Virus record (IMG/VR): IMGVR_UViG_2558860472_000005 | Coordinates: 1-34,628 of that record | Source: a virus | Taxonomy: Duplodnaviria > Heunggongvirae > Uroviricota > Caudoviricetes | Direction: 5' to 3' (one strand) | Length of the DNA: 34,628 nucleotides | Program-made: the position numbers and the translations under genes | Shown here: positions 920-12,866 of the stretch, piece by piece | How positions within the stretch are numbered: the first letter of the stretch is position 1 | Layout: the number at the start of each line of letters is the position of its first letter | The notes under the pieces: model-generated | What the model saw: the letters and a program-made list of their open reading frames with translations, nothing else | Databases searched by the model: none | Told to the model about the DNA's origin: nothing

Positions 920-2104
920 TTAACCAGTTTTGATTTCCCCGTGTGGAACGACAATCCAATTAATGTGGTTTTGAGTGTAAATCTTAGTCGACTGAGCGTC
1001 GCTATGTGCCATTCGTCCTTGGGGATCGATACCCTGCTGATCGAAAAGATGCGCTGCCAGAGCTCTGATTTCATGAAAGGTTGGTCTTTCATCCATCGGT
1101 AGATTGTCGCATAAACCTAGCTTGTCTCGCGTTGCTGAAAACGATCGACTCAAATAGTCTGGTGCAACTTGTGTCGGATGTGAAACCTCTTTGCTTCGTT
1201 TAACTTGGCGTTCTGGGATTCTGTGAACGACAAACGGACTAGCCACATTATCTCGGCTATCGTCAATTATCCGTTTCAACTCTTCACCAATTGGTATTGC
1301 AACGTGTGACGCCTCTTTTTTTTGCACTTTTTGCCTGTGGATGTAAAGCGTCCCATATATGCCATTTTGTGGTTGTTCGAACCAGACACATCCACATATA
1401 CCGTCTTTAGGTTCGCGAATTGAGTAACGGATTCGCGATACTTCGAGTCGTGCATGTGTAGTTTGCAATGCTAGGTCCATTGCTGTTCTTAACCATGGTG
1501 CAGCGGCCTGCCTGATAGCTATAAAATGCTCGAGTGACAGGCGCCGTCTTTTCTTCTCATCAGTCCTACGCATTTTTTTTCTGATGGCCGGGTTATCCAG
1601 CATTAGTGATTCATCGACCGCATAAGAGAACAACTTTTTAAGAAAGCTGACCTTTCTGTTCTGCACATTTGCGGATGCGCTGGCATGATATTTGTTGATG
1701 TAGGTATTAACGTGTTCAAGTTCGATATCGCATGCCGGAACATTTACGAAAAACGCTTTTACGCGTAGAGCGTCATTTTTCCAGTCATCTAAGGTGCTCT
1801 GGGAAGGACGTTCGTCTTCGATAATCCGGGTCATTATGTGATCAACATGTTCAGCAAATGGTTTTGCTTCTCCGATAACACCGCCAGATTCTCTAATAAG
1901 ATTTTCTACTGATGGAGATAATTCTGCTCTCATCCTCAGGTTGTACTCTCTGGCGATTGCAATGGCTATTGCCCTATCCTTACCTATATTTTTCTTCTTT
2001 CCAGTAATAAGTGTGAATTTATAAACACCTCGATCTTTATCAAAAATCAGATAATCAGGAAGATGTCTGTATTCTTTTTTACGTGGCCTTGCCGCCATGG
2101 TCAC
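920..2104 (-). CDS. int: Tyrosine recombinase / phage integrase
   Basis: 394 aa. C-terminal catalytic-region pattern (HEIRALAAHL ... MAHSD ... TKIYTQ). The 4-nt overlap with a downstream xis-like gene is the typical int-xis arrangement. Confidence 0.9.
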   Translation of the reverse strand: MTMAARPRKKEYRHLPDYLIFDKDRGVYKFTLITGKKKNIGKDRAIAIAIAREYNLRMRAELSPSVENLIRESGGVIGEAKPFAEHVDHIMTRIIEDERPSQSTLDDWKNDALRVKAFFVNVPACDIELEHVNTYINKYHASASANVQNRKVSFLKKLFSYAVDESLMLDNPAIRKKMRRTDEKKRRRLSLEHFIAIRQAAAPWLRTAMDLALQTTHARLEVSRIRYSIREPKDGICGCVWFEQPQNGIYGTLYIHRQKVQKKEASHVAIPIGEELKRIIDDSRDNVASPFVVHRIPERQVKRSKEVSHPTQVAPDYLSRSFSATRDKLGLCDNLPMDERPTFHEIRALAAHLFDQQGIDPQGRMAHSDAQSTKIYTQNHINWIVVPHGEIKTG

Positions 2105-4931: not shown

Positions 4932-4959
4932 ATTATGTATCTCAAAGGTACATTGTCAA
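4932..4959 (-). promoter_or_regulatory. PL-like early-left promoter
   Basis: Minus strand: TTGACA (4959-4954), 16-nt spacer, CATAAT (4937-4932). The spacer is occupied by an operator-like palindrome. Confidence 0.6.
4935..4953. promoter_or_regulatory. Operator OL (ATGTACC-N5-GATACAT)
   Basis: Same 7-5-7 architecture and half-site (TGTACC/GGTACA) as the two palindromes beside cro. Confidence 0.55.
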
Positions 4960-4961
4960 GT

Positions 4962-4998: not shown

Positions 4999-5673
4999 TT
5001 AGGCTTTGATTTTGTATCTTCTTGGTTTTCCTGAGAAAATCACTGTACCAATTATAGAGCAATTACCGTTGATCTTAATGTAAGGCTCAGGCCAGTTTGG
5101 GTTTAACGCTTTGAGATAACGCTGTGTCCCATCTTCTATCAACCTTTTGAAGGTGGTTTCACCTGTATCGTGCATCAATGCAATAACGTCGTCACCGTGG
5201 CAGGCAGGTACTTCAGGATCGACAAAAATCATGTCTCCCGGGCGGTACTCATCAATCATTGAATCACCTATCACCCGCAAGATATAAGTCATTTCCCCAC
5301 AGGGTACAGGGCAGGGATACGTTTCTGCTGTGCTCAAATCAACCTCAGAATATCCAACTTCTTTCCATGCTCCGGCCTGTACCCATGATATGACAGGGAC
5401 TAATGTGATTTGTTTATTAGTGATTGAAACATCAGGTTTTTTTGTGATGTTCGTTGTCTGGTGTTCTTGATCGAGCCATCCGACAGGCAGGTCGAAACAT
5501 CTTTCGATGTGTCGTGCCATGCTGTCACCGATATTTTTAGTAGCACCATCTCCCATAAACCTGCTGGTCTGGGTTGGCTCGCGATCAATCATAGTGGCAA
5601 AGGAAGAATTCCCGCCAACACCATCTCTCAGTTTTCTGGCGTTAGACCGCCGGATGTCATGGATTGTTTTCAT
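4999..5673 (-). CDS. CI-type repressor, LexA-like S24 peptidase family (e14 CohE/YmfK-like)
   Basis: 224 aa with an N-terminal HTH region. The C-terminal part has self-cleavage motifs (VISWVQAGAW, RVIGDSM, ..FKRL..). It is divergent from the cro-like gene. Confidence 0.9.
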   Translation of the reverse strand: MKTIHDIRRSNARKLRDGVGGNSSFATMIDREPTQTSRFMGDGATKNIGDSMARHIERCFDLPVGWLDQEHQTTNITKKPDVSITNKQITLVPVISWVQAGAWKEVGYSEVDLSTAETYPCPVPCGEMTYILRVIGDSMIDEYRPGDMIFVDPEVPACHGDDVIALMHDTGETTFKRLIEDGTQRYLKALNPNWPEPYIKINGNCSIIGTVIFSGKPRRYKIKA

Positions 5674-5688
5674 AACGAAATTAAAACC

Positions 5689-5709
5689 CTTGTACCGTTA
5701 AGGTACAAG
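5689..5709. promoter_or_regulatory. Operator OR-a (CTTGTACC-GTTAA-GGTACAAG, perfect 8-bp arms)
   Basis: Perfect inverted repeat between the cI start and the PR -35. Confidence 0.65.
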
Positions 5710-5713
5710 TATC

Positions 5714-5741
5714 TTGAAGGTTCATTTTAATCATGTAATAT
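5714..5741 (+). promoter_or_regulatory. PR-like early-right promoter
   Basis: TTGAAG (5714-5719), 16-nt spacer, TAATAT (5736-5741). Operator OR-b overlaps the -10 and the start site. Confidence 0.55.
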
Positions 5742-5758
5742 GTACACCGGAGGTACAT
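5740..5758. promoter_or_regulatory. Operator OR-b (ATGTACA-CCGGA-GGTACAT)
   Basis: A 7-5-7 imperfect palindrome with the same half-site, overlapping the PR -10 and the cro SD. Confidence 0.6.
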
Positions 5759-5763
5759 ATTGT

Positions 5764-5995: not shown

Positions 5996-6565
5996 ATGAG
6001 GCTAATCGTGGGTAAGCATCACTGGAAAATAGAAAAACAGCCTGAGTGGTACGTGAAAGCTGTCAGAAAAACTATCGCGGCGTTGCCGGGTGGTTACGCT
6101 GAAGCGGCTGACTGGCTCGATGTAACAGAAAACGCTTTATTCAACCGCCTTCGTGCAGATGGCGATCAGATTTTCCCGCTGGGATGGGCAATGGTTTTAC
6201 AGCGTGCTGGTGGCACTCACTTCATTGCTGATGCTGTGGCGCAGTCTGCAAATGGCGTCTTTGTGTCTCTTTCTGACGTCGAGGATGTGGACAACGCCGA
6301 TATTAACCAGCGTCTGCTGGAAGTCATTGAACAGATCGGCAGTTATTCAAAACAGATTCGTTCAGCAATCGAAGACGGTGTAGTGGAACCGCATGAGAAG
6401 ACAGCAATTAACGACGAGCTGTATCTCTCAATTTCGAAGCTGCAGGAGCATGCAGCACTTGTCTACAAAATTTTTTGCATTTCAGAAAGTAATGACGCCC
6501 GCGAGTGTGCAGCTCCGGGCGTCGTGGCGTCGATTGCTTCTGGTTGTGGAGAAACTAACGCATGA
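5996..6565 (+). CDS. Early regulatory protein (YmfL-like / CII-like position)
   Basis: 189-aa ORF immediately downstream of cro. From memory it resembles e14 YmfL. Confidence 0.5.
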
Positions 6566-6900
6566 ACAGTTTAACAACACACTACCGTCGCTCGCAACTG
6601 ATTGCGCTTCCTGTACCGGGTGGAAAAGCGAAGGTGGAATATTGCTATGCAGTGAATGTACCAGGTGACAGGGAAATTGTAACCCACAGCTTTGCAGAGT
6701 GGGCTGTGGGTGATTTCAACCGGCAGAAGGAGACAGTCCTTTGCGACAAGTTAACCGCTGGTTCAAAGATCACTACGGAGTGCCCGTCAGAGTCATTCGT
6801 TGGGAGCCGGAAACACAACGGGTTATCTACCTCCGCGAAGGTTATGAGCATGAATGCTTCAGTCCGCTCGAACAGTTTCGTCGTAAATTCAGGGAAATAG
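6562..6900 (+). CDS. Hypothetical early protein (YmfM-like position)
   Basis: 112-aa ORF with a 4-nt overlap to the upstream gene. No family recognised. Confidence 0.45.
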
Positions 6901-6909
6901 AGGTCGGTC

Positions 6910-7851
6910 ATGAGCACTAAATTAACCGGCTATGTATGGGATGGTTGCGCTGCATCAGGCATGAAGTTATCCAGCGTGGCAATTATGGCCCGCCTGGCTG
7001 ATTTCAGTAATGACGAAGGTGTGTGCTGGCCATCAATTGAAACCATTGCCCGTCAGATTGGCGCGGGGATGAGTACCGTCAGAACGGCTATCGCACGGCT
7101 GGAAGCAGAAGGCTGGTTAACGCGTAAGGCGCGTCGCCAGGGTAACCGCAATGCGTCGAATGTTTATCAGCTTAACGTTGCGAAGCTTCAGGCAGCGGCA
7201 TTTTCTCAACTGTCAGATTCTGACCCGTCAAAATCTGACGCATCAAAATCTGACCCGTCAAAATTTGATGCGTCGAAATCTGGCAAAAAAGCGGGTTTTC
7301 ACCCGTCAGAATCTGGCGGGGATCCGTCAGTAAAATCAAAACATGATCCGTCAGATAAAAAACCTTCTCGTCCGGACGCTTCGCAACCGGACACGCAGAC
7401 GGCTGAACAGGATTTTTTAACTCGCCATCCTGATGCGGTTGTATTCAGCCCTAAAAAGCGCCAGTGGGGAACGCAGGATGATTTGACCTGCGCACAGTGG
7501 CTCTGGAAAAAAATCATCGCCCTGTACGAGCAGGCCGCCGAATGTGACGGCGAGGTGGTTCGTCCCAAAGAACCGAACTGGACAGCCTGGGCAAACGAAA
7601 TTCGCCTGATGTGTGTGCAGGATGGTCGTAATCATAAACAAATCTGCGAGATGTACAGCCGCGTCAGTCGCGATCCGTTCTGGTGCCGTAACGTGCTCAG
7701 CCCGTCGAAGCTGCGGGAAAAATGGGATGAGCTTTCCCTGCGCTTATCGCCGTCCGTCAGCACGTACACCGAAAAACGCGAAGACCCGTACTTCAAATCC
7801 AGTTACGACAACGTGGACTACAGCCAGATCCCGGCAGGATTCAGGGGGTGA
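6910..7851 (+). CDS. Replication initiator-like protein with N-terminal winged-helix domain
   Basis: N-terminal wHTH pattern (CWPSIETIARQIGAGMSTVRTAIARLEAEGWL). The central region carries tandem DNA iterons, like lambda O with its internal ori. Confidence 0.7.
   Translation: MSTKLTGYVWDGCAASGMKLSSVAIMARLADFSNDEGVCWPSIETIARQIGAGMSTVRTAIARLEAEGWLTRKARRQGNRNASNVYQLNVAKLQAAAFSQLSDSDPSKSDASKSDPSKFDASKSGKKAGFHPSESGGDPSVKSKHDPSDKKPSRPDASQPDTQTAEQDFLTRHPDAVVFSPKKRQWGTQDDLTCAQWLWKKIIALYEQAAECDGEVVRPKEPNWTAWANEIRLMCVQDGRNHKQICEMYSRVSRDPFWCRNVLSPSKLREKWDELSLRLSPSVSTYTEKREDPYFKSSYDNVDYSQIPAGFRG
7210..7362. repeat. Iteron array (candidate ori) inside the initiator gene
   Basis: Five tandem 15-bp units of type CCGTCAAAATCTGAC span 7210-7284. 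Three further CCGTCAG-type copies lie at about 7303, 7324 and 7348, followed by an A-rich stretch. They translate as SKSDx pentapeptide repeats. Confidence 0.6.
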
Positions 7852-7853
7852 TC

Positions 7854-8342
7854 ATGAGTCTGTTAAATGACGTTCAGAAATTCATTGAAGCCCATCCTGG
7901 GTGTACTTCCGGAGACATTGCGGATGCTTTTGCAGGTTACTCACGGCAGCGCGTTCTGCAGTCTGCAAGCAAGTTACGTCAGAGTGGGCGTGTGGCTCAC
8001 CGTTGTGAAGGAGATACACGCAGACATTTCCCGCGCCTGACTGAGAGAGCGCAGGAGCCGGAACCACAACCAGTTCGTGAAACCAGACCTGTGCGCAATT
8101 TCTATGTCGGCACTAACGATCCCCGGGTGATTTTGTGCCTGACCCGCCAGGCTGAAGAACTGGAGTCAAGGGGCTTATACCGTCGTGCTGCAACCGTGTG
8201 GATGGCGGCATTCCGTGAAAGCCACTCCCAGCCAGAACGAAACAATTTTCTGGCGCGTCGTGAGCAGTGCTTACAGAAAAGCAGCAAGCGCGCTGCATCG
8301 GGTGAAGAGTGGTATCTGTCAGGGAATTACGTGGGGGCGTAA
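7854..8342 (+). CDS. PerC-domain transcriptional regulator-like protein
   Basis: The C-terminal segment AEELESRGLYRRAATVWMAAF matches the A..LE..G.WRRAA..W signature remembered for the PerC/Pch family. The start is ambiguous: GTG at 7848 or ATG at 7854 after AGGGGG. Confidence 0.5.
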   Translation: MSLLNDVQKFIEAHPGCTSGDIADAFAGYSRQRVLQSASKLRQSGRVAHRCEGDTRRHFPRLTERAQEPEPQPVRETRPVRNFYVGTNDPRVILCLTRQAEELESRGLYRRAATVWMAAFRESHSQPERNNFLARREQCLQKSSKRAASGEEWYLSGNYVGA

Positions 8343-8668
8343 TGACGACGTTAACTCAATGCCAGCAGCAGGTGCTGGATATGCTGATTTCTTATCAGAA
8401 AGAGCGTGGCTTTCCGCCAACCAATCAGGAGGTGGCAACCATGGTGGGATACCGTTCGGTGAATGCAGCGGTGGAGCATCTTCGCGCACTGGAGAAAAAA
8501 GGCCTCATCACGATAAAGCGTGGCGTGGCACGGGGGATAACGCTTCATACCGCTGTGAAGGACGACGACAGCGAGGCGGTCGGGATTATCCGCGCACTGC
8601 TTGCCGGTGAGGAAAACGCCAGGCTGCGTGCAGCCCACTGGTTACATGAGAGGGGCCTGAAAGTATGA
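8342..8668 (+). CDS. LexA N-terminal DNA-binding-domain-only protein
   Basis: TAATG start/stop overlap at 8340-8344. MTTLTQCQQQVLDMLISYQKERGFPPTNQEVATMVGYRSVNAAVEHLRALEKKGLITIKRGVARGITL aligns along its length with the LexA wHTH (..LTARQQEVFDLI...[41 protein letters not shown]). There is no cleavage site and no S24 domain. Confidence 0.65.
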   Translation: MTTLTQCQQQVLDMLISYQKERGFPPTNQEVATMVGYRSVNAAVEHLRALEKKGLITIKRGVARGITLHTAVKDDDSEAVGIIRALLAGEENARLRAAHWLHERGLKV

Positions 8669-9054
8669 AGCTGATTCTGCCTTTTCCGCCCAGCGTGAAC
8701 ACGTACTGGCGACACCCCAACAAAGGGGCGTTTGCTGGTAAGAGCCTGATAAGCGCGGCGGGGCGCAAATTCCAGAGCGCGGCGTGTGCAGCAATAGTTG
8801 AGCAGTTACGTCGTCTGCCAAAACCAACGTCGGCACCTGCTTCAGTGGAGATCGTGTTGTTTCCACCGGATAACCGGATCCGCGATCTGGACAACTATAA
8901 CAAGGCGCTGTTTGACGCCCTGACCCACGCGGGTGTGTGGGAGGACGACAGTCAGGTGAAAAGAATGCTGGTGGAGTGGGGGCCGGTTATCCCGGAAGGG
9001 AAGGTCGAGATCACTATCAGTAAGTACGAGAAAACGGCGGGTGCAGCCGCCTGA
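8665..9054 (+). CDS. rusA: RusA-family Holliday junction resolvase
   Basis: LPFPPSVNTYWRH ... RDLDNYNKALFDALTHAGVWEDDSQV is the typical RusA signature. 129 aa. Confidence 0.9.
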   Translation: MKLILPFPPSVNTYWRHPNKGAFAGKSLISAAGRKFQSAACAAIVEQLRRLPKPTSAPASVEIVLFPPDNRIRDLDNYNKALFDALTHAGVWEDDSQVKRMLVEWGPVIPEGKVEITISKYEKTAGAAA

Positions 9055-9073
9055 TTAAGAGGAGAAACGAAGT

Positions 9074-9871
9074 ATGAATAATCTGATGGTCATTGATGGT
9101 ATTGAAGTTCGTCGTGATGCTTATGGGCGTTACAGCCTGAACGATCTGCACAGGGCTGCCGGTTCTCAGGATAAGCATAAGCCTGCATTTTGGCTCCGCA
9201 ATGAGCAAACCGAACGTTTAATAAGCGAGTTGCAGATTTGCAACTCGGTCAATATAGAGCCAGTTAACGTTAGTCGTGGCGGAAATAACCAGGGGACGTA
9301 TGTCTGCAAAGAACTGGTGTATGCCTATGCAATGTGGATCAGCCCGTCATTCCATCTGAAGGTGATCCGTACTTTCGATATGGTAACCAGCGCACCGGAA
9401 AAATTATCCGGGCAGGCTGCTGACAAGATGCAGGCTGGTGTAATTCTGCTGGACTTTATGCGTCGGGAGTTAAACCTGTCTAACTCATCTGTGCTTGGTG
9501 CCTGTCAGAAACTCCAGGAGGCTGTTGGCTTACCGAATCTGGCACCGCGCTATGCCATTGATGCTCCTGCTGACGCGCCTGATGGCTCAAGTCGCCCCAC
9601 GCTGTCGCTGAGTGCACTGCTGAAACAGTATGGTATCCGCCTTACGGCTAATCAGGCATATCACCAGATGGTGAAGCTGGGGATCGTCGAGCAGCGCGAA
9701 CGATACAGCCGTACCTCGATTAACAACATCAAAAAATTCTGGTCGCTGACAGCGAAAGGCTGCATGTTCGGCAAGAACATCACCAGTCCCGCAAATCCGC
9801 GCGAGACGCAGCCGCATTTCTTCGAATCCCGATTCCCTGAGCTGTTAAAGCTGCTCGATACCGTTCATTGA
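9074..9871 (+). CDS. KilA-N domain protein (antirepressor-like)
   Basis: N-terminal pattern YSLNDLHRAAG...KHKPAFWLRNEQT ... GTYVCKELVYAYAMWISPSFHLKVIRTFD is typical of KilA-N. Confidence 0.8.
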   Translation: MNNLMVIDGIEVRRDAYGRYSLNDLHRAAGSQDKHKPAFWLRNEQTERLISELQICNSVNIEPVNVSRGGNNQGTYVCKELVYAYAMWISPSFHLKVIRTFDMVTSAPEKLSGQAADKMQAGVILLDFMRRELNLSNSSVLGACQKLQEAVGLPNLAPRYAIDAPADAPDGSSRPTLSLSALLKQYGIRLTANQAYHQMVKLGIVEQRERYSRTSINNIKKFWSLTAKGCMFGKNITSPANPRETQPHFFESRFPELLKLLDTVH

Positions 9872-9872
9872 G

Positions 9873-10868
9873 GTGACTGTGAGAGCACTACTGACCCCTG
9901 AAATTGCCCCGCGTATGGGGATCGTATTGTTCAGACCAGGTTCAGAGCTGATGCCCCTGTTTATGCAGGGGCGTGTCCTGCTGGAGCCTGAGCCGGAACG
10001 TTATTCATCTTTCGCCAGTGGTGCCGTTCCGGCGGCATCACAACCGCTGGCGGATGATCCTGCCGTTCGGGCCGTGTTCCGCAATGAGGCAGTGATCCGT
10101 CGTGCTGGTGGCGTGGAATGTCTTGAAAGCTGGTTACTTCGTGAAAAAAGCTGTCAGTGGCCTCATTCCGACTGGCATAGCGAGAACATGACAACAATGC
10201 GACACGCGCCGGGCGCAATCCGTCTGTGCTGGCACTGTGATAATCAGCTGCGCGATCAGTTCACGGAACGGCTGGAATCAATGGCAACGGATAACTGTGC
10301 CCGCTGGGTGTTGTCTGTTGTGCGTCGGGATCTCGGTTTTGATGATAGTCACGTTGTGACAATGCCGGAACTGTGCTGGTGGCTGATTCGTAATGATCTG
10401 GCGGATGCCTTACCGGAAAGTGCAGCCCGTAAGGCACTGAGATTACCGAAGCCTGTTGTGCCGTCTGTTACCCGGGAAAGTGACCTTGTGCCTTCGGTTC
10501 CTGCCACCAGCATCATCCAGGATAAAGCGAAAAAGGTGCTGGCGCTGAAAGTGGATCCGGAGTCGCCGGAGTCTTTTATGTTACGCCCTAAACGTCGCCG
10601 CTGGGTTAACGAAAAGTACACGCGCTGGGTTAAGACGCAGCCGTGTGCATGTTGTGGAAAGCCTGCTGATGATCCCCACCACCTGATAGGTCACGGTCAG
10701 GGTGGAATGGGTACAAAAGCGCATGACCTCTTTGTGTTGCCTTTGTGCAGAAAGCATCACGACGAGCTGCATGCGGATACTGTGGCATTTGAAGATAAAT
10801 ATGGCTCTCAACTGGAGCTGATATTTCGTTTTATCGATCGTGCGCTGGCAACTGGCGTGCTGGCCTGA
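9873..10868 (+). CDS. DUF968-like (YdfU-like) protein with C-terminal HNH/zinc-type motif
   Basis: C-terminal [18 protein letters not shown] ... [10 protein letters not shown]. 331 aa, located in the Nin-region position. Confidence 0.65.
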
Positions 10869-10885
10869 TTTTGTGGAGAAAGTTG

Positions 10886-11257
10886 ATGCGTGATATTCAA
10901 ATGGTTCTTGAACGTTGGGGTGCATGGGTGGCAAATAATCACGAGGATGTCACTTGGTCGTCTATTGCTGCAGGATTTAAAGGACTAATCCCTTCAAAAG
11001 TAAAATCCCGCCCGCAATGTTGTGACGATGACGCGATGATCATTTGTGGGTGTATGGCTCGCCTGAAAAAGAACAACAGCGATTTGCACGATTTATTAGT
11101 GGATTACTATGTAGGAGGTATGACATTTATGGCGCTTGCCCGTAAACATGGGCGTTCTGATTGCTGGGTTGGGCGTTTATTGCAAAAAGCGGAAGGAGTA
11201 GTTGATGGTATGTTGATAATGCTAGATATTGAATTGGAAATGGAACGTAAAATTTAG
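10886..11257 (+). CDS. Late-gene antiterminator Q-like protein
   Basis: The likely start is ATG at 10886, 7 nt after [22 protein letters not shown].. with a Cys cluster ([14 protein letters not shown]), and the last gene before the lysis region. The family assignment is from memory. Confidence 0.6.
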
Positions 11258-11486
11258 TTATGTTATGAATAAATAAATGCTAATGATTTTTGTAAGATAG
11301 CTCATTTTATGTCCATAGGTGATGTATGCATTAATATGATTAATTTGTCTCCTTATAAAAATAAGATTATGTAAATAATAACAAAGGGTGACATTATTAA
11401 GTGTTGCTTTTTCTTAGTAAGTTGTTATCCTACTTAAGGTTGAATGATATTGTATCGAATAAAGTTGCTTATATAGAATTATTTTT

Positions 11487-12014
11487 ATGTTATGGCTTAT
11501 TGAGTTAGTTAATAGGATGATTGAATCAATGCTTTCAAATGTAATTTTAAGTGGAGCTATGTCCACGTTATTGGCTGCATTTCTAATTTTTGTGTTTAAG
11601 GAGTATATAAAAAGGCCACCTAATTTTTCAGGGGTGTTTGAGATCGAGTGTAAAACGCTAAAATCATCATATAATTCATATGTAAACCTAACTACATTCT
11701 ATACATTAGTGTTGATTTGTGATAATAACACTATAGAAGGACATATTGAAAAAATAAAAGATATCGAAAATGATGGGTATGAAAGAAAATATATTGGCGT
11801 GCATCGCAATATTGGCGATGTCAATGGTGTAATTAAAAGAAATTACTTAAGACCTAACCATGCTTCGTTGAATATAAAAATGCATGGTGATAAGAGGGAT
11901 TATACTATTATGCTATATTTTAAGAAGGTGAATACGAAAAATATGAAAGGAACTTTTTTATCTACTGCTGCAGATTCTTCTGGAGATGTTAAGTGGCAGC
12001 GAAAAAATTTTTAA
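11487..12014 (+). CDS. Hypothetical single-pass membrane protein (first gene of the AT-rich cassette)
   Basis: N-terminal hydrophobic helix (VILSGAMSTLLAAFLIFVF) followed by a soluble domain. Very low G+C. The start codon is uncertain (several Met, weak SDs). It overlaps the next gene by 22 nt. Confidence 0.5.
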   Translation: MLWLIELVNRMIESMLSNVILSGAMSTLLAAFLIFVFKEYIKRPPNFSGVFEIECKTLKSSYNSYVNLTTFYTLVLICDNNTIEGHIEKIKDIENDGYERKYIGVHRNIGDVNGVIKRNYLRPNHASLNIKMHGDKRDYTIMLYFKKVNTKNMKGTFLSTAADSSGDVKWQRKNF

Positions 12015-12637
12015 TTTATTTACTGTCGTTGCCATATTTAATAATGGCTTCGATTATCATAAAGCTTAAAGTTAAAAGTATAATTGATGATTATGAGAAA
12101 TGTACTACTTATATTTACTGTAACTCGAAGAAATATAATAACATTTCTCCTGTTATGATTGATATATTAAGGTTAGCAGAGGATCATCGACAATTATTGC
12201 ATAGAGGGATTGACCCCATTGCAATCATTAGAACTTTTTATCTGAGGATATTTAAAAATATACACCAAGGAGCGAGCACTATAGAACAGCAGTTTGTGAG
12301 AACTATAACTAAAAGATACGAAAAAACAATACGTAGAAAGATAAGAGAGCAGATATTGGCTATATTGATTAGAAATGTATCAACTCCAGATGATATATGT
12401 AAGTGTTATCTTTCTTGTTGTTACTATGGCTATGGAACTTATGGGATAGATAATCTTTTAAAAAAGAAACAAAATATCAGTGATTTTGATATTGTTGCAA
12501 TGATTAAATATCCATTCAGGGGAGAAGTTGTTTCAGTTACAGAGGAACGATTTAAACATAGGTCGCTCTATCTTTCCACTTTATATAAATTAAATGCACA
12601 AAGGGATATGATTTTTTTGCGAAAATATAGTGGGTGA
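11993..12637 (+). CDS. Membrane-anchored GT51-family peptidoglycan glycosyltransferase homologue (MtgA-like)
   Basis: GTG start 7 nt after GGAG, with an N-terminal TM helix (FLIYLLSLPYLIMASIII). The GT51 motifs occur in order: AEDHRQLLHRGID (EDxxFxxHxGxD), QGASTIEQQ (GGSTITQQ) and RRKIRE (RKxxE). Both catalytic Glu positions are present. Confidence 0.7.
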   Translation: MAAKKFLIYLLSLPYLIMASIIIKLKVKSIIDDYEKCTTYIYCNSKKYNNISPVMIDILRLAEDHRQLLHRGIDPIAIIRTFYLRIFKNIHQGASTIEQQFVRTITKRYEKTIRRKIREQILAILIRNVSTPDDICKCYLSCCYYGYGTYGIDNLLKKKQNISDFDIVAMIKYPFRGEVVSVTEERFKHRSLYLSTLYKLNAQRDMIFLRKYSG

Positions 12638-12834
12638 TTATGTTAAGTGTATTTTATTATGTGTCAAAAAGTTTAGTCATCTCTGCTTAATGTATAATCG
12701 TGAATGTTTTTATTCAGATTTTATGCATGTCAAGTTGATGAGTGCCGTCGACATAAGATATGGGGATAATGAATAGTTTACAATCGTAAATAATAGAATA
12801 TCCTGTTAAAAGTGGTTACTTCTCCACGCAGCTT

Positions 12835-12866
12835 AAACCCGCCGTCGAGCGGGTTTTGTCGTTTCT
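12835..12866 (+). terminator. Hairpin terminator upstream of the holin (tR'-like position)
   Basis: AAACCCGC-CGTCGA-GCGGGTTT followed by TGTCGTTTCT. It lies just right of the point where G+C returns to backbone level. Confidence 0.5.

Follow-up and report, generated by a model that had tools for sequence, protein, structure and literature searches.

A lambdoid prophage gene for a stand-alone LexA-type DNA-binding domain with a predicted helical hairpin tail

The phage-borne, stand-alone copy of the DNA-binding domain of a host regulator is an established concept because of the precedents of gp6 and NinH. As an activator of the late promoter P3, the gp6 protein of the tectivirus GIL01/Bam35, a 'truncated LexA homologue', turns on the late genes; its site at -43.5 is GaCACAnnTGTGaC, and its recognition helix reads SHKTAHRY, with Lys38 as the key residue (PMC6182141). 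The NinH protein of phage lambda, encoded in the nin region, is a homodimeric mimic of Fis that prefers a sequence related to the Fis consensus (PMC7166090). In E. coli LexA, the residues that contact bases are Ser39, Asn41, Ala42, Glu44, and Glu45 (PMC3091678). Here we analysed a stretch of viral DNA of 34,628 nucleotides (IMG/VR record IMGVR_UViG_2558860472_000005, positions 1 to 34,628), which is a lambdoid prophage and which we call the window at its full length. It carries a real and intact gene for a 108-residue LexA-like protein, which is the subject of this report.

Our best explanation, to which we would give roughly an even chance of being right, sees in the LexA-like protein a paralogue of the LexA domain, probably dimeric and insensitive to RecA, that is made during lytic development and binds a two-fold symmetric site built from a CTGT-related half-site. 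The features on which the analysis rests are collected in Table 1.

Architecture of the LexA-like protein

From the list of open reading frames (ORFs) and the sequence, the 108-residue product begins with MTTLTQCQQQ and ends with HERGLKV. The ATG at 8342, not the upstream GTG at 8309, is taken as the correct start because homologues start at the same Met. A Pfam search found that the LexA_DNA_bind model (PF01726) matches residues 1-65 over its full length (model positions 1-65 of 65; E 4.5e-19; 68.4 bits against a gathering cutoff of 23.7). Using phmmer against all PDB sequences, we found that every match was a LexA protein, and that phage residues 2-70 aligned to the same positions of E. coli LexA at about 47% identity. 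AlphaFold2, given 15 family sequences, returned a model with a mean predicted local distance difference test score (pLDDT) of 83.7 and with helices at residues 6-22, 28-35, and 40-52 and strands at 56-58 and 66-68 in the DNA-binding domain. Foldseek superposed this model on the LexA–DNA complex 3JSO (3jso_B) with a root mean square deviation of 0.9 Å over 68 columns at 47% identity. By both phmmer and Foldseek, E. coli LexA is the closest solved structure to the domain. An earlier note on this DNA, made from the letters alone, had claimed a likeness to the LexA winged helix over the first 70 residues or so, including the recognition-helix region RSVNAAVEHL. The phmmer alignment to the PDB sequences indeed pairs that region with its LexA counterpart, and Pfam, phmmer, and AlphaFold2/Foldseek agree on a likeness far beyond chance. 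These results show that the N-terminal part of the protein is a LexA-type winged helix-turn-helix.

The residue numbering of LexA and of the phage protein is identical, so the base contacts can be compared position by position. In the window protein, Ser39, just before the recognition helix, is kept together with N41, A42, and E45, and Val stands at the position of Glu44. The same was found family-wide in the 121 unique full-length members on which all family statistics given here are based. Ser39 is present in 100% of them, Asn41 in 98%, Ala42 in 92%, and Glu45 in 79% (Asp in a further 12%), whereas position 44 holds Ala (44%), Val (36%), Thr (11%), Leu (5%), or Phe (2%), and Glu in none of the 121. 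Four of the five LexA base contacts are thus retained across the family and the Glu44 contact is systematically lost. Because the four are kept and Glu44 is always replaced, the half-site is expected to be related to CTGT and distinct from it. The K53-G54 pair and the wing R64-G65-I66 are also retained across the family. The recognition helix is fairly uniform (S-x-N-A-A-[AVT]-[ED]), and subfamilies differ at positions 40, 44, 45, and 46. In members as distant as about 41% identity, S39, N41, K53, R64, G65, I66, A97, and L101 are still invariant or near-invariant, and conservation of this kind points to purifying selection on both the domain and the tail.

No Peptidase_S24 match was found by Pfam in the LexA-like protein, which stops at residue 108, and the S24 peptidase/dimerisation domain that carries the Ser119/Lys156 dyad in LexA is not present in it. 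The lexA equivalog TIGR00498 of NCBIfam matched over model positions 1-91 of 203 with 70.3 bits, below its cutoff of 110.95. What follows the DNA-binding domain is a linker, where residues 71-75 have a pLDDT below 50 and family alignments show indels, and then a hairpin of two predicted helices. The earlier note had described the protein as lacking a Ser/Lys peptidase domain and ending in a short unrelated helical tail; the missing S24 match and the partial TIGR00498 match bear out the former, and the two helices of the AlphaFold2 model the latter. The hairpin (residues 75-103) has no Pfam or PDB match, and no prior description of it was found in the literature searched. It is conserved at V80, I82, I83, L86, L87, and A93, at A97 (100% of members), at position 100 as W, F, or Y (98%), and at L101 (98%). 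We infer that the hairpin pairs two subunits, because its conserved hydrophobic and small surface exceeds what two short helices would bury alone, and we propose it as a dimerisation module.

The earlier note had further stated that there is no Ala-Gly cleavage site. Taken literally this is wrong: the protein contains Ala88-Gly89, and HMMER aligned its ALLAGEE with RVAAGEP of LexA, which spans the Ala84-Gly85 scissile bond. As a cleavage site, nevertheless, the dipeptide was ruled out. Of the 121 members, 45% have A88 and 78% have G89, with N, D, E, R, or K as replacements; in the AlphaFold2 model the pair lies at the end of a confidently predicted helix, not in an exposed strand-loop; and the alignment of the family profile with LexA stops at residue 74. 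We regard Ala88-Gly89 as a subfamily-specific coincidence or a relic, and as very unlikely to be a cleavage site, so that the note's conclusion of non-cleavability stands. Because there is neither a peptidase domain nor a conserved cleavage site, the sequence supports the view that nothing in the LexA-like protein would be able to respond to activated RecA (RecA*).

Search for a target site in the phage

To look for a site that the protein might bind in the phage, the window was searched for SOS boxes. No exact box (CTGT-N8-ACAG) was found in the whole 34.6 kb, and boxes with one mismatch numbered 13 against 10.4 expected, which is chance level, all of them within genes. A position weight matrix (PWM) derived from 19 SOS boxes of E. 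coli reached a best score of 8.7 in the window, compared with 12.9-26.8 for the training boxes, and gave fewer matches than in shuffled sequences. With no SOS box in the prophage and this best score, the earlier note's option that the protein occupies phage sites is left without a candidate site. The search for CTG-N10-CAG that it had proposed gave 15 matches against 7.3 expected, but all lie in genes and have G+C-rich spacers, and none is SOS-box-like.

Repeated or long dyads in the window comprised only CI-type operators, terminators, iterons of the replication origin, and isolated dyads, and the non-coding control regions held only CI-type operators, terminators, and A+T-rich near-palindromes. 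In the pR' and Q-proximal regions, no dyad for a late activation of the gp6 type was found, nor was one conserved among loci. The dyads shared among 11 family loci were the origin iterons, a dyad at the 3' end of cII, an immunity-type dyad (CTACCA-N14-TGGTAG) that the window lacks, and a coding coincidence in DUF968, none of which is credible as a target. Because the window offers no candidate in cis, in searches that assumed near-perfect dyads, a target in trans (on the host chromosome or on co-resident elements) rather than in the phage is weakly favoured on the present sequence evidence.

Several individual dyads were recorded in the course of this search. The dyad GACGCCCG-N14-CGGGCGTC at 6494-6531, at the 3' end of the cII-like gene, is present in 7 of the 11 family loci, and may represent an oop-like structure, a terminator, or no more than conserved coding sequence. 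The sequence CAGTGG-N-GACTGG (dyad CAGT-N12-ACTG) at 10155-10180 in the DUF968 gene is conserved in at least six loci; it was rejected as a target, as it encodes the conserved C-Q-W-P-H-x-D-W-H (QW..DW) motif in the N-terminal part of DUF968. A dyad with 9-bp arms, AACCCACAGC-N12-GCTGTGGGT, lies at 6681-6711 in the ORF 6562-6900, and a second ACAGC-N12-GCTGT lies at 6401-6422, 285 bp upstream of it. The ACAGC-N12-GCTGT pair (6401 and 6686) was likewise rejected, being common only to a near-identical Shigella locus (L007).

Operon, prophage and family context

The gene lies in the early-right operon of the prophage, among packed or overlapping genes. The earlier note had pointed to its translational coupling with the upstream PerC-like gene through TAATG. 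The overlap is indeed present in the sequence; the PerC neighbour is not conserved at other family loci, many of which lack it or have Dam or other genes in between, and this rules out the coupling as functionally meaningful. Among 17 family loci, the upstream neighbour was found to be PerC, Dam, another methylase, the initiator itself, or a moron, and because of this variation the PerC coupling is incidental. On the downstream side, rusA follows directly with overlapping frames in 15 of the 17 loci, which belong to different genera, and after one 67-residue ORF in the other two. The order LexA-like, RusA, Ant/KilA-N, DUF968, Q is constant and is kept even with a different replication module. 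Over these loci, the adjacent RusA and DUF968 have changed less than the LexA-like protein, which at L009 is 67% identical, compared with 91% for RusA and 87% for DUF968, and at L002 47%, compared with 75% and 64%, respectively.

A simple and crude consensus scan of the plus strand flagged no promoter-like site between 4500 and 9055, and did not flag pR itself. We infer that the LexA-like gene is delayed-early and co-transcribed from pR. The RecA-responsive switch of the prophage would be CI, which carries an S24 peptidase, and not the LexA-like protein.

Table 1. Features of the LexA-like gene and its surroundings in the window
Feature	Position	Strand	Basis or remark
Stand-alone LexA-type DNA-binding protein gene	8342..8668	+	ORF list, PF01726, PHROG 362 = 'LexA family transcriptional regulator'
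LexA winged-helix DNA-binding domain, residues 1-65	8342..8536	+	Pfam, AlphaFold2, Foldseek
Recognition helix VNAAVEHLRALEK, residues 40-52	8459..8497	+	Alignment to E. coli LexA
Linker, residues 69-75, low-confidence, acidic, length-variable	8546..8566	+	AlphaFold2, family indels
Predicted two-helix hairpin, residues 75-103 (helices 75-88 and 93-103)	8564..8650	+	AlphaFold2 pLDDT about 90, conserved residues
Ala88-Gly89 codons	8603..8608	+	Aligned by HMMER to the LexA Ala84-Gly85 scissile bond; judged no cleavage site
TAATG stop/start overlap with upstream PerC/YfdN-like gene	8340..8344	+	Sequence
ATGA start/stop overlap with downstream rusA	8665..8668	+	Sequence
Integrase	920-2104	-	
CI-type repressor with S24 peptidase	4999-5673	-	Pfam Peptidase_S24, E 1.5e-26
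Early-right operon, cII-like to Q	5996..11257	+	Pfam; packed or overlapping genes
cII-like gene	5996-6565	+	
ORF	6562-6900	+	
O-like initiator gene with internal iterons	6910-7851	+	
PerC/YfdN-like gene	7848-8342	+	Pfam PerC, E 6.7e-9
rusA	8665-9054	+	Pfam RusA, E 6.1e-15
KilA-N gene	9074-9871	+	
DUF968/HNH gene	9873-10868	+	
Q antiterminator gene	10871-11257	+	

Other features of the prophage were recorded as follows. Operator-like dyads TGTAC-N5/7-GTACA flank the CI gene at 5689-5709, 5739-5759, and about 4935-4960, and are likely the operators OR and OL of this immunity type. Iteron-like repeats of tctgacccgtcaaaatctga and its variants at 7205-7300, inside the O-like initiator gene, presumably mark the phage origin. 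In most carrier phages (SfV, SfII, mEp460, cdtI, and Stx2 phages), a Dam-type methyltransferase gene stands between the PerC-like and LexA-like genes; it is missing from the window. An A+T-rich, moron-like insert at 11258-12640 separates Q from a putative pR'/tR' and contains ORFs at 11487-12014 (no Pfam match) and 11993-12637 (a Transgly domain), and a terminator-like hairpin lies at 12835-12856 at the putative pR'/tR'. A scan for defence systems with PADLOC gave one marginal, non-specific match only.

The window protein belongs to a large family of SfV/mEp460-type lambdoid prophages of Enterobacterales. It matches PHROG 362 at full length (residues 1-108 on profile positions 1-106 of 106; E 1.1e-58), which PHROG labels 'transcriptional repressor'; 'repressor' as a family label is to be read as an annotation. 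Of 5426 complete E. coli genomes, 2233 carry the gene at 95-99% identity, in as many as four copies each. Among phages, 61 records contain the family gene, including SfV (orf42, 'unknown'), SfII, SfIV, cdtI, mEp460, 1720a-02, and many Stx2a- and Stx2c-converting phages; the window protein is 95-97% identical to phage copies. Members at 41-67% identity that also have the tail come from Citrobacter, Salmonella, Cronobacter, Leclercia, Enterobacter, Klebsiella, Kosakonia, and Buttiauxella, and all family hosts found are Enterobacterales. The family is therefore common and already catalogued in E. coli prophages. In databases the gene appears as 'LexA family transcriptional regulator', and also as 'LexA repressor' or 'SOS-response repressor and protease LexA'; the last two, used in RefSeq, are over-annotations here. 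No functional study of the enterobacterial family (SfV orf42, mEp460) was found in the literature searched.

Short LexA-domain proteins without a peptidase are common beyond the family: 97 of the 121 best distant cluster representatives, some of them perhaps fragments, have at most 185 residues and no G-x-S-M motif. Many representatives (P0132, P0133, P0139, P0142, and others) have tandem double LexA DNA-binding domains without a peptidase, which is a single-chain 'dimer' architecture. The databases also hold Dam-LexA-like or LexA-like-RusA fusion 'proteins' (P0023, P0121, and P0253), which are probably frameshifts at the overlapping junctions. One protein of 240 residues (P0163, L057:6001-6723) joins a LexA-like domain of the family (recognition helix SSPNSATEH) to the HNH part from the C-terminus of DUF968. 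It is a single case, from a decaying prophage in which recA is split into two ORFs, and is probably a deletion product.

Possible roles and comparison with known systems

Under the explanation we prefer, the LexA-like gene would be transcribed with the delayed-early genes from pR, from its place between the replication genes and the rusA-Q genes, and its product would be made after induction or infection and not in the lysogen. The hairpin would pair two subunits and so substitute for the C-terminal dimer of LexA, and the dimer would sit on a two-fold symmetric DNA site whose half-site would be related, though not identical, to the SOS half-site CTGT. The protein would then act as a transcription or DNA-occupancy factor that could not be removed by RecA*. 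Several points weigh against this explanation. Sequence-specific binding is deduced from homology, and the window gave no candidate binding site in cis. The hairpin could alternatively dock on a partner protein. The fast divergence may point to a shifting specificity or to an arms race between proteins, instead of to a single fixed DNA target. Finally, an internal promoter with expression in lysogens is possible, as the promoter scan missed pR.

The leading concrete alternative, a plausible one, takes up the idea of the earlier note that the protein is a true LexA mimic, and we would give it a modest minority chance. It would bind the canonical host SOS boxes CTGT-N8-ACAG and, being uncleavable, would re-repress in the induced cell; its targets would be SOS genes, or the LexA-controlled antirepressors and colicins of competing elements, once host LexA has been destroyed. 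Among solved structures, E. coli LexA comes closest to the domain (47% identity, 0.9 Å), and S39, N41, A42, and E45 are retained family-wide together with the wing R64-G65-I66, but the Glu44 contact is absent in 121 of 121 members, and the subfamily variation at positions 40, 44, 45, and 46 would be unexpected if one fixed SOS box were read. Every family host lies in Enterobacterales, and these hosts would share the E. coli SOS box; the position in the early-right operon suggests that the protein would be made while host LexA is cleaved. The isolated N-terminal fragment of LexA can bind operators cooperatively. An argument against the mimic is that the dimerisation domain that sets the 16-bp spacing in LexA is replaced here by an unrelated hairpin on a flexible linker of variable length. 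The lack of a target in cis would fit a mimic; the missing SOS box in the prophage counts against the idea. NinH shows that a mimic from the nin region can share the sequence preference of the host factor, whereas gp6, the one characterised phage LexA-domain protein, reads a different site. That the family is a widespread, uncleavable 'replacement LexA', whose dimer re-occupies all or some SOS boxes after induction, seems to us somewhat less probable still.

A further possibility, which we consider improbable, is a phage-specific regulator of the gp6 type, with its own dyad in the phage genome, that would activate or repress a phage promoter and might time late or accessory genes. GIL01 gp6 itself is the precedent, and hhalign found the family to be homologous to it over the DNA-binding domain (probability 96%, 32% identity over 63 columns), although BLASTP gave no pairwise alignment between gp6 and the LexA-like protein. 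The fast divergence relative to the neighbours would fit co-evolving pairs of protein and site, but the recognition helix is fairly uniform across the family. Moreover, the Q antiterminator and the pR'/tR'-like region suggest that no late activator is needed, the control regions hold only CI-type operators and terminators, and the 11 family loci share no dyad except iterons, CI- and CII-associated dyads, and coding coincidences. A slimmer chance is left for an accessory DNA-binding or adaptor subunit of a recombination/nuclease module (RusA, KilA-N/Ant, and DUF968-HNH) or of replication, in place of a transcription factor. Such a role would fit the overlap with an adjoining rusA at 15 of 17 loci and the conserved order from the LexA-like gene to Q, but packing and overlap are the rule for every gene in the operon, so that adjacency carries little weight. 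The one natural fusion of a LexA-like domain to DUF968-HNH is a single case from a decaying prophage with a split recA. The NinH gene of lambda adjoins the nin-region resolvase gene and is thus comparably placed, but RusA is known to act on its own, and the base-contact residues conserved here are those of a sequence-specific repressor. Scarcely credible, in our judgement, is a substrate cleaved in trans, in which an Ala88-Gly89 relic would be cut by host LexA, by the S24 domain of phage CI, or under RecA*. Intermolecular cleavage of LexA has been reported, HMMER pairs ALLAGEE with RVAAGEP, and the TIGR00498 match reaches position 91; yet the variable A88 and G89 with their N, D, E, R, and K replacements, the confident helix end in place of an exposed strand-loop, and the loss of profile homology to LexA after residue 74 all speak against it.

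The significance of the gene would depend on which of these sites is bound. If SOS-type boxes are bound, many E. coli, Shigella, and Shiga toxin-producing E. coli strains would carry a RecA-proof SOS modulator that acts just when prophages, including Stx2-converting carriers, are induced, with a bearing on toxin release, prophage competition, and antibiotic-triggered SOS phenotypes. If the protein does replace LexA, SOS functions harmful to the phage would be shut off, and the antirepressors, colicins, and defence systems of co-resident elements would be blocked, giving the phage priority in polylysogens; because roughly 40% of the sequenced E. coli genomes carry the gene, it would be an SOS modifier both widespread and unrecognised. 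If the protein binds a site of its own, it would add to the accessory regulators of the nin region in lambdoid phages, and the interest would lie mainly in the capture of a host repressor domain together with a new, predicted dimerisation module.

Compared with E. coli LexA (PDB 1LEA and 3JSO), the phage protein has the same fold, 47% identity over residues 2-70, and the same S39, N41, A42, E45, and R64-G65-I66 wing. It differs in having no S24 peptidase/dimer domain and no conserved Ala-Gly, in the family-wide replacement of Glu44, and in its unrelated hairpin C-terminus. Unlike lexA, which is an autoregulated chromosomal gene, the phage gene is part of an early operon. With gp6 it shares being a phage-encoded, stand-alone and uncleavable LexA DNA-binding domain from an early operon. 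In contrast, gp6 has 66 residues and no tail, its recognition helix is different (Lys38 is not matched), and the phage described here appears to use the Q antiterminator for its late genes. Nothing materially different was found in the comparison with the phage genes of PHROG 362, apart from the adjoining Dam gene that the window copy lacks. NinH, like the LexA-like protein, is small, imitates the DNA-binding part of a global regulator of the host, and is encoded between the replication genes and Q. The two differ in that NinH has a Fis-type helix-turn-helix instead of a LexA winged helix, and in that binding and dimerisation are experimental for NinH and deduced for the LexA-like protein. In genome position and logic, NinH is the nearest analogy to the LexA-like protein.

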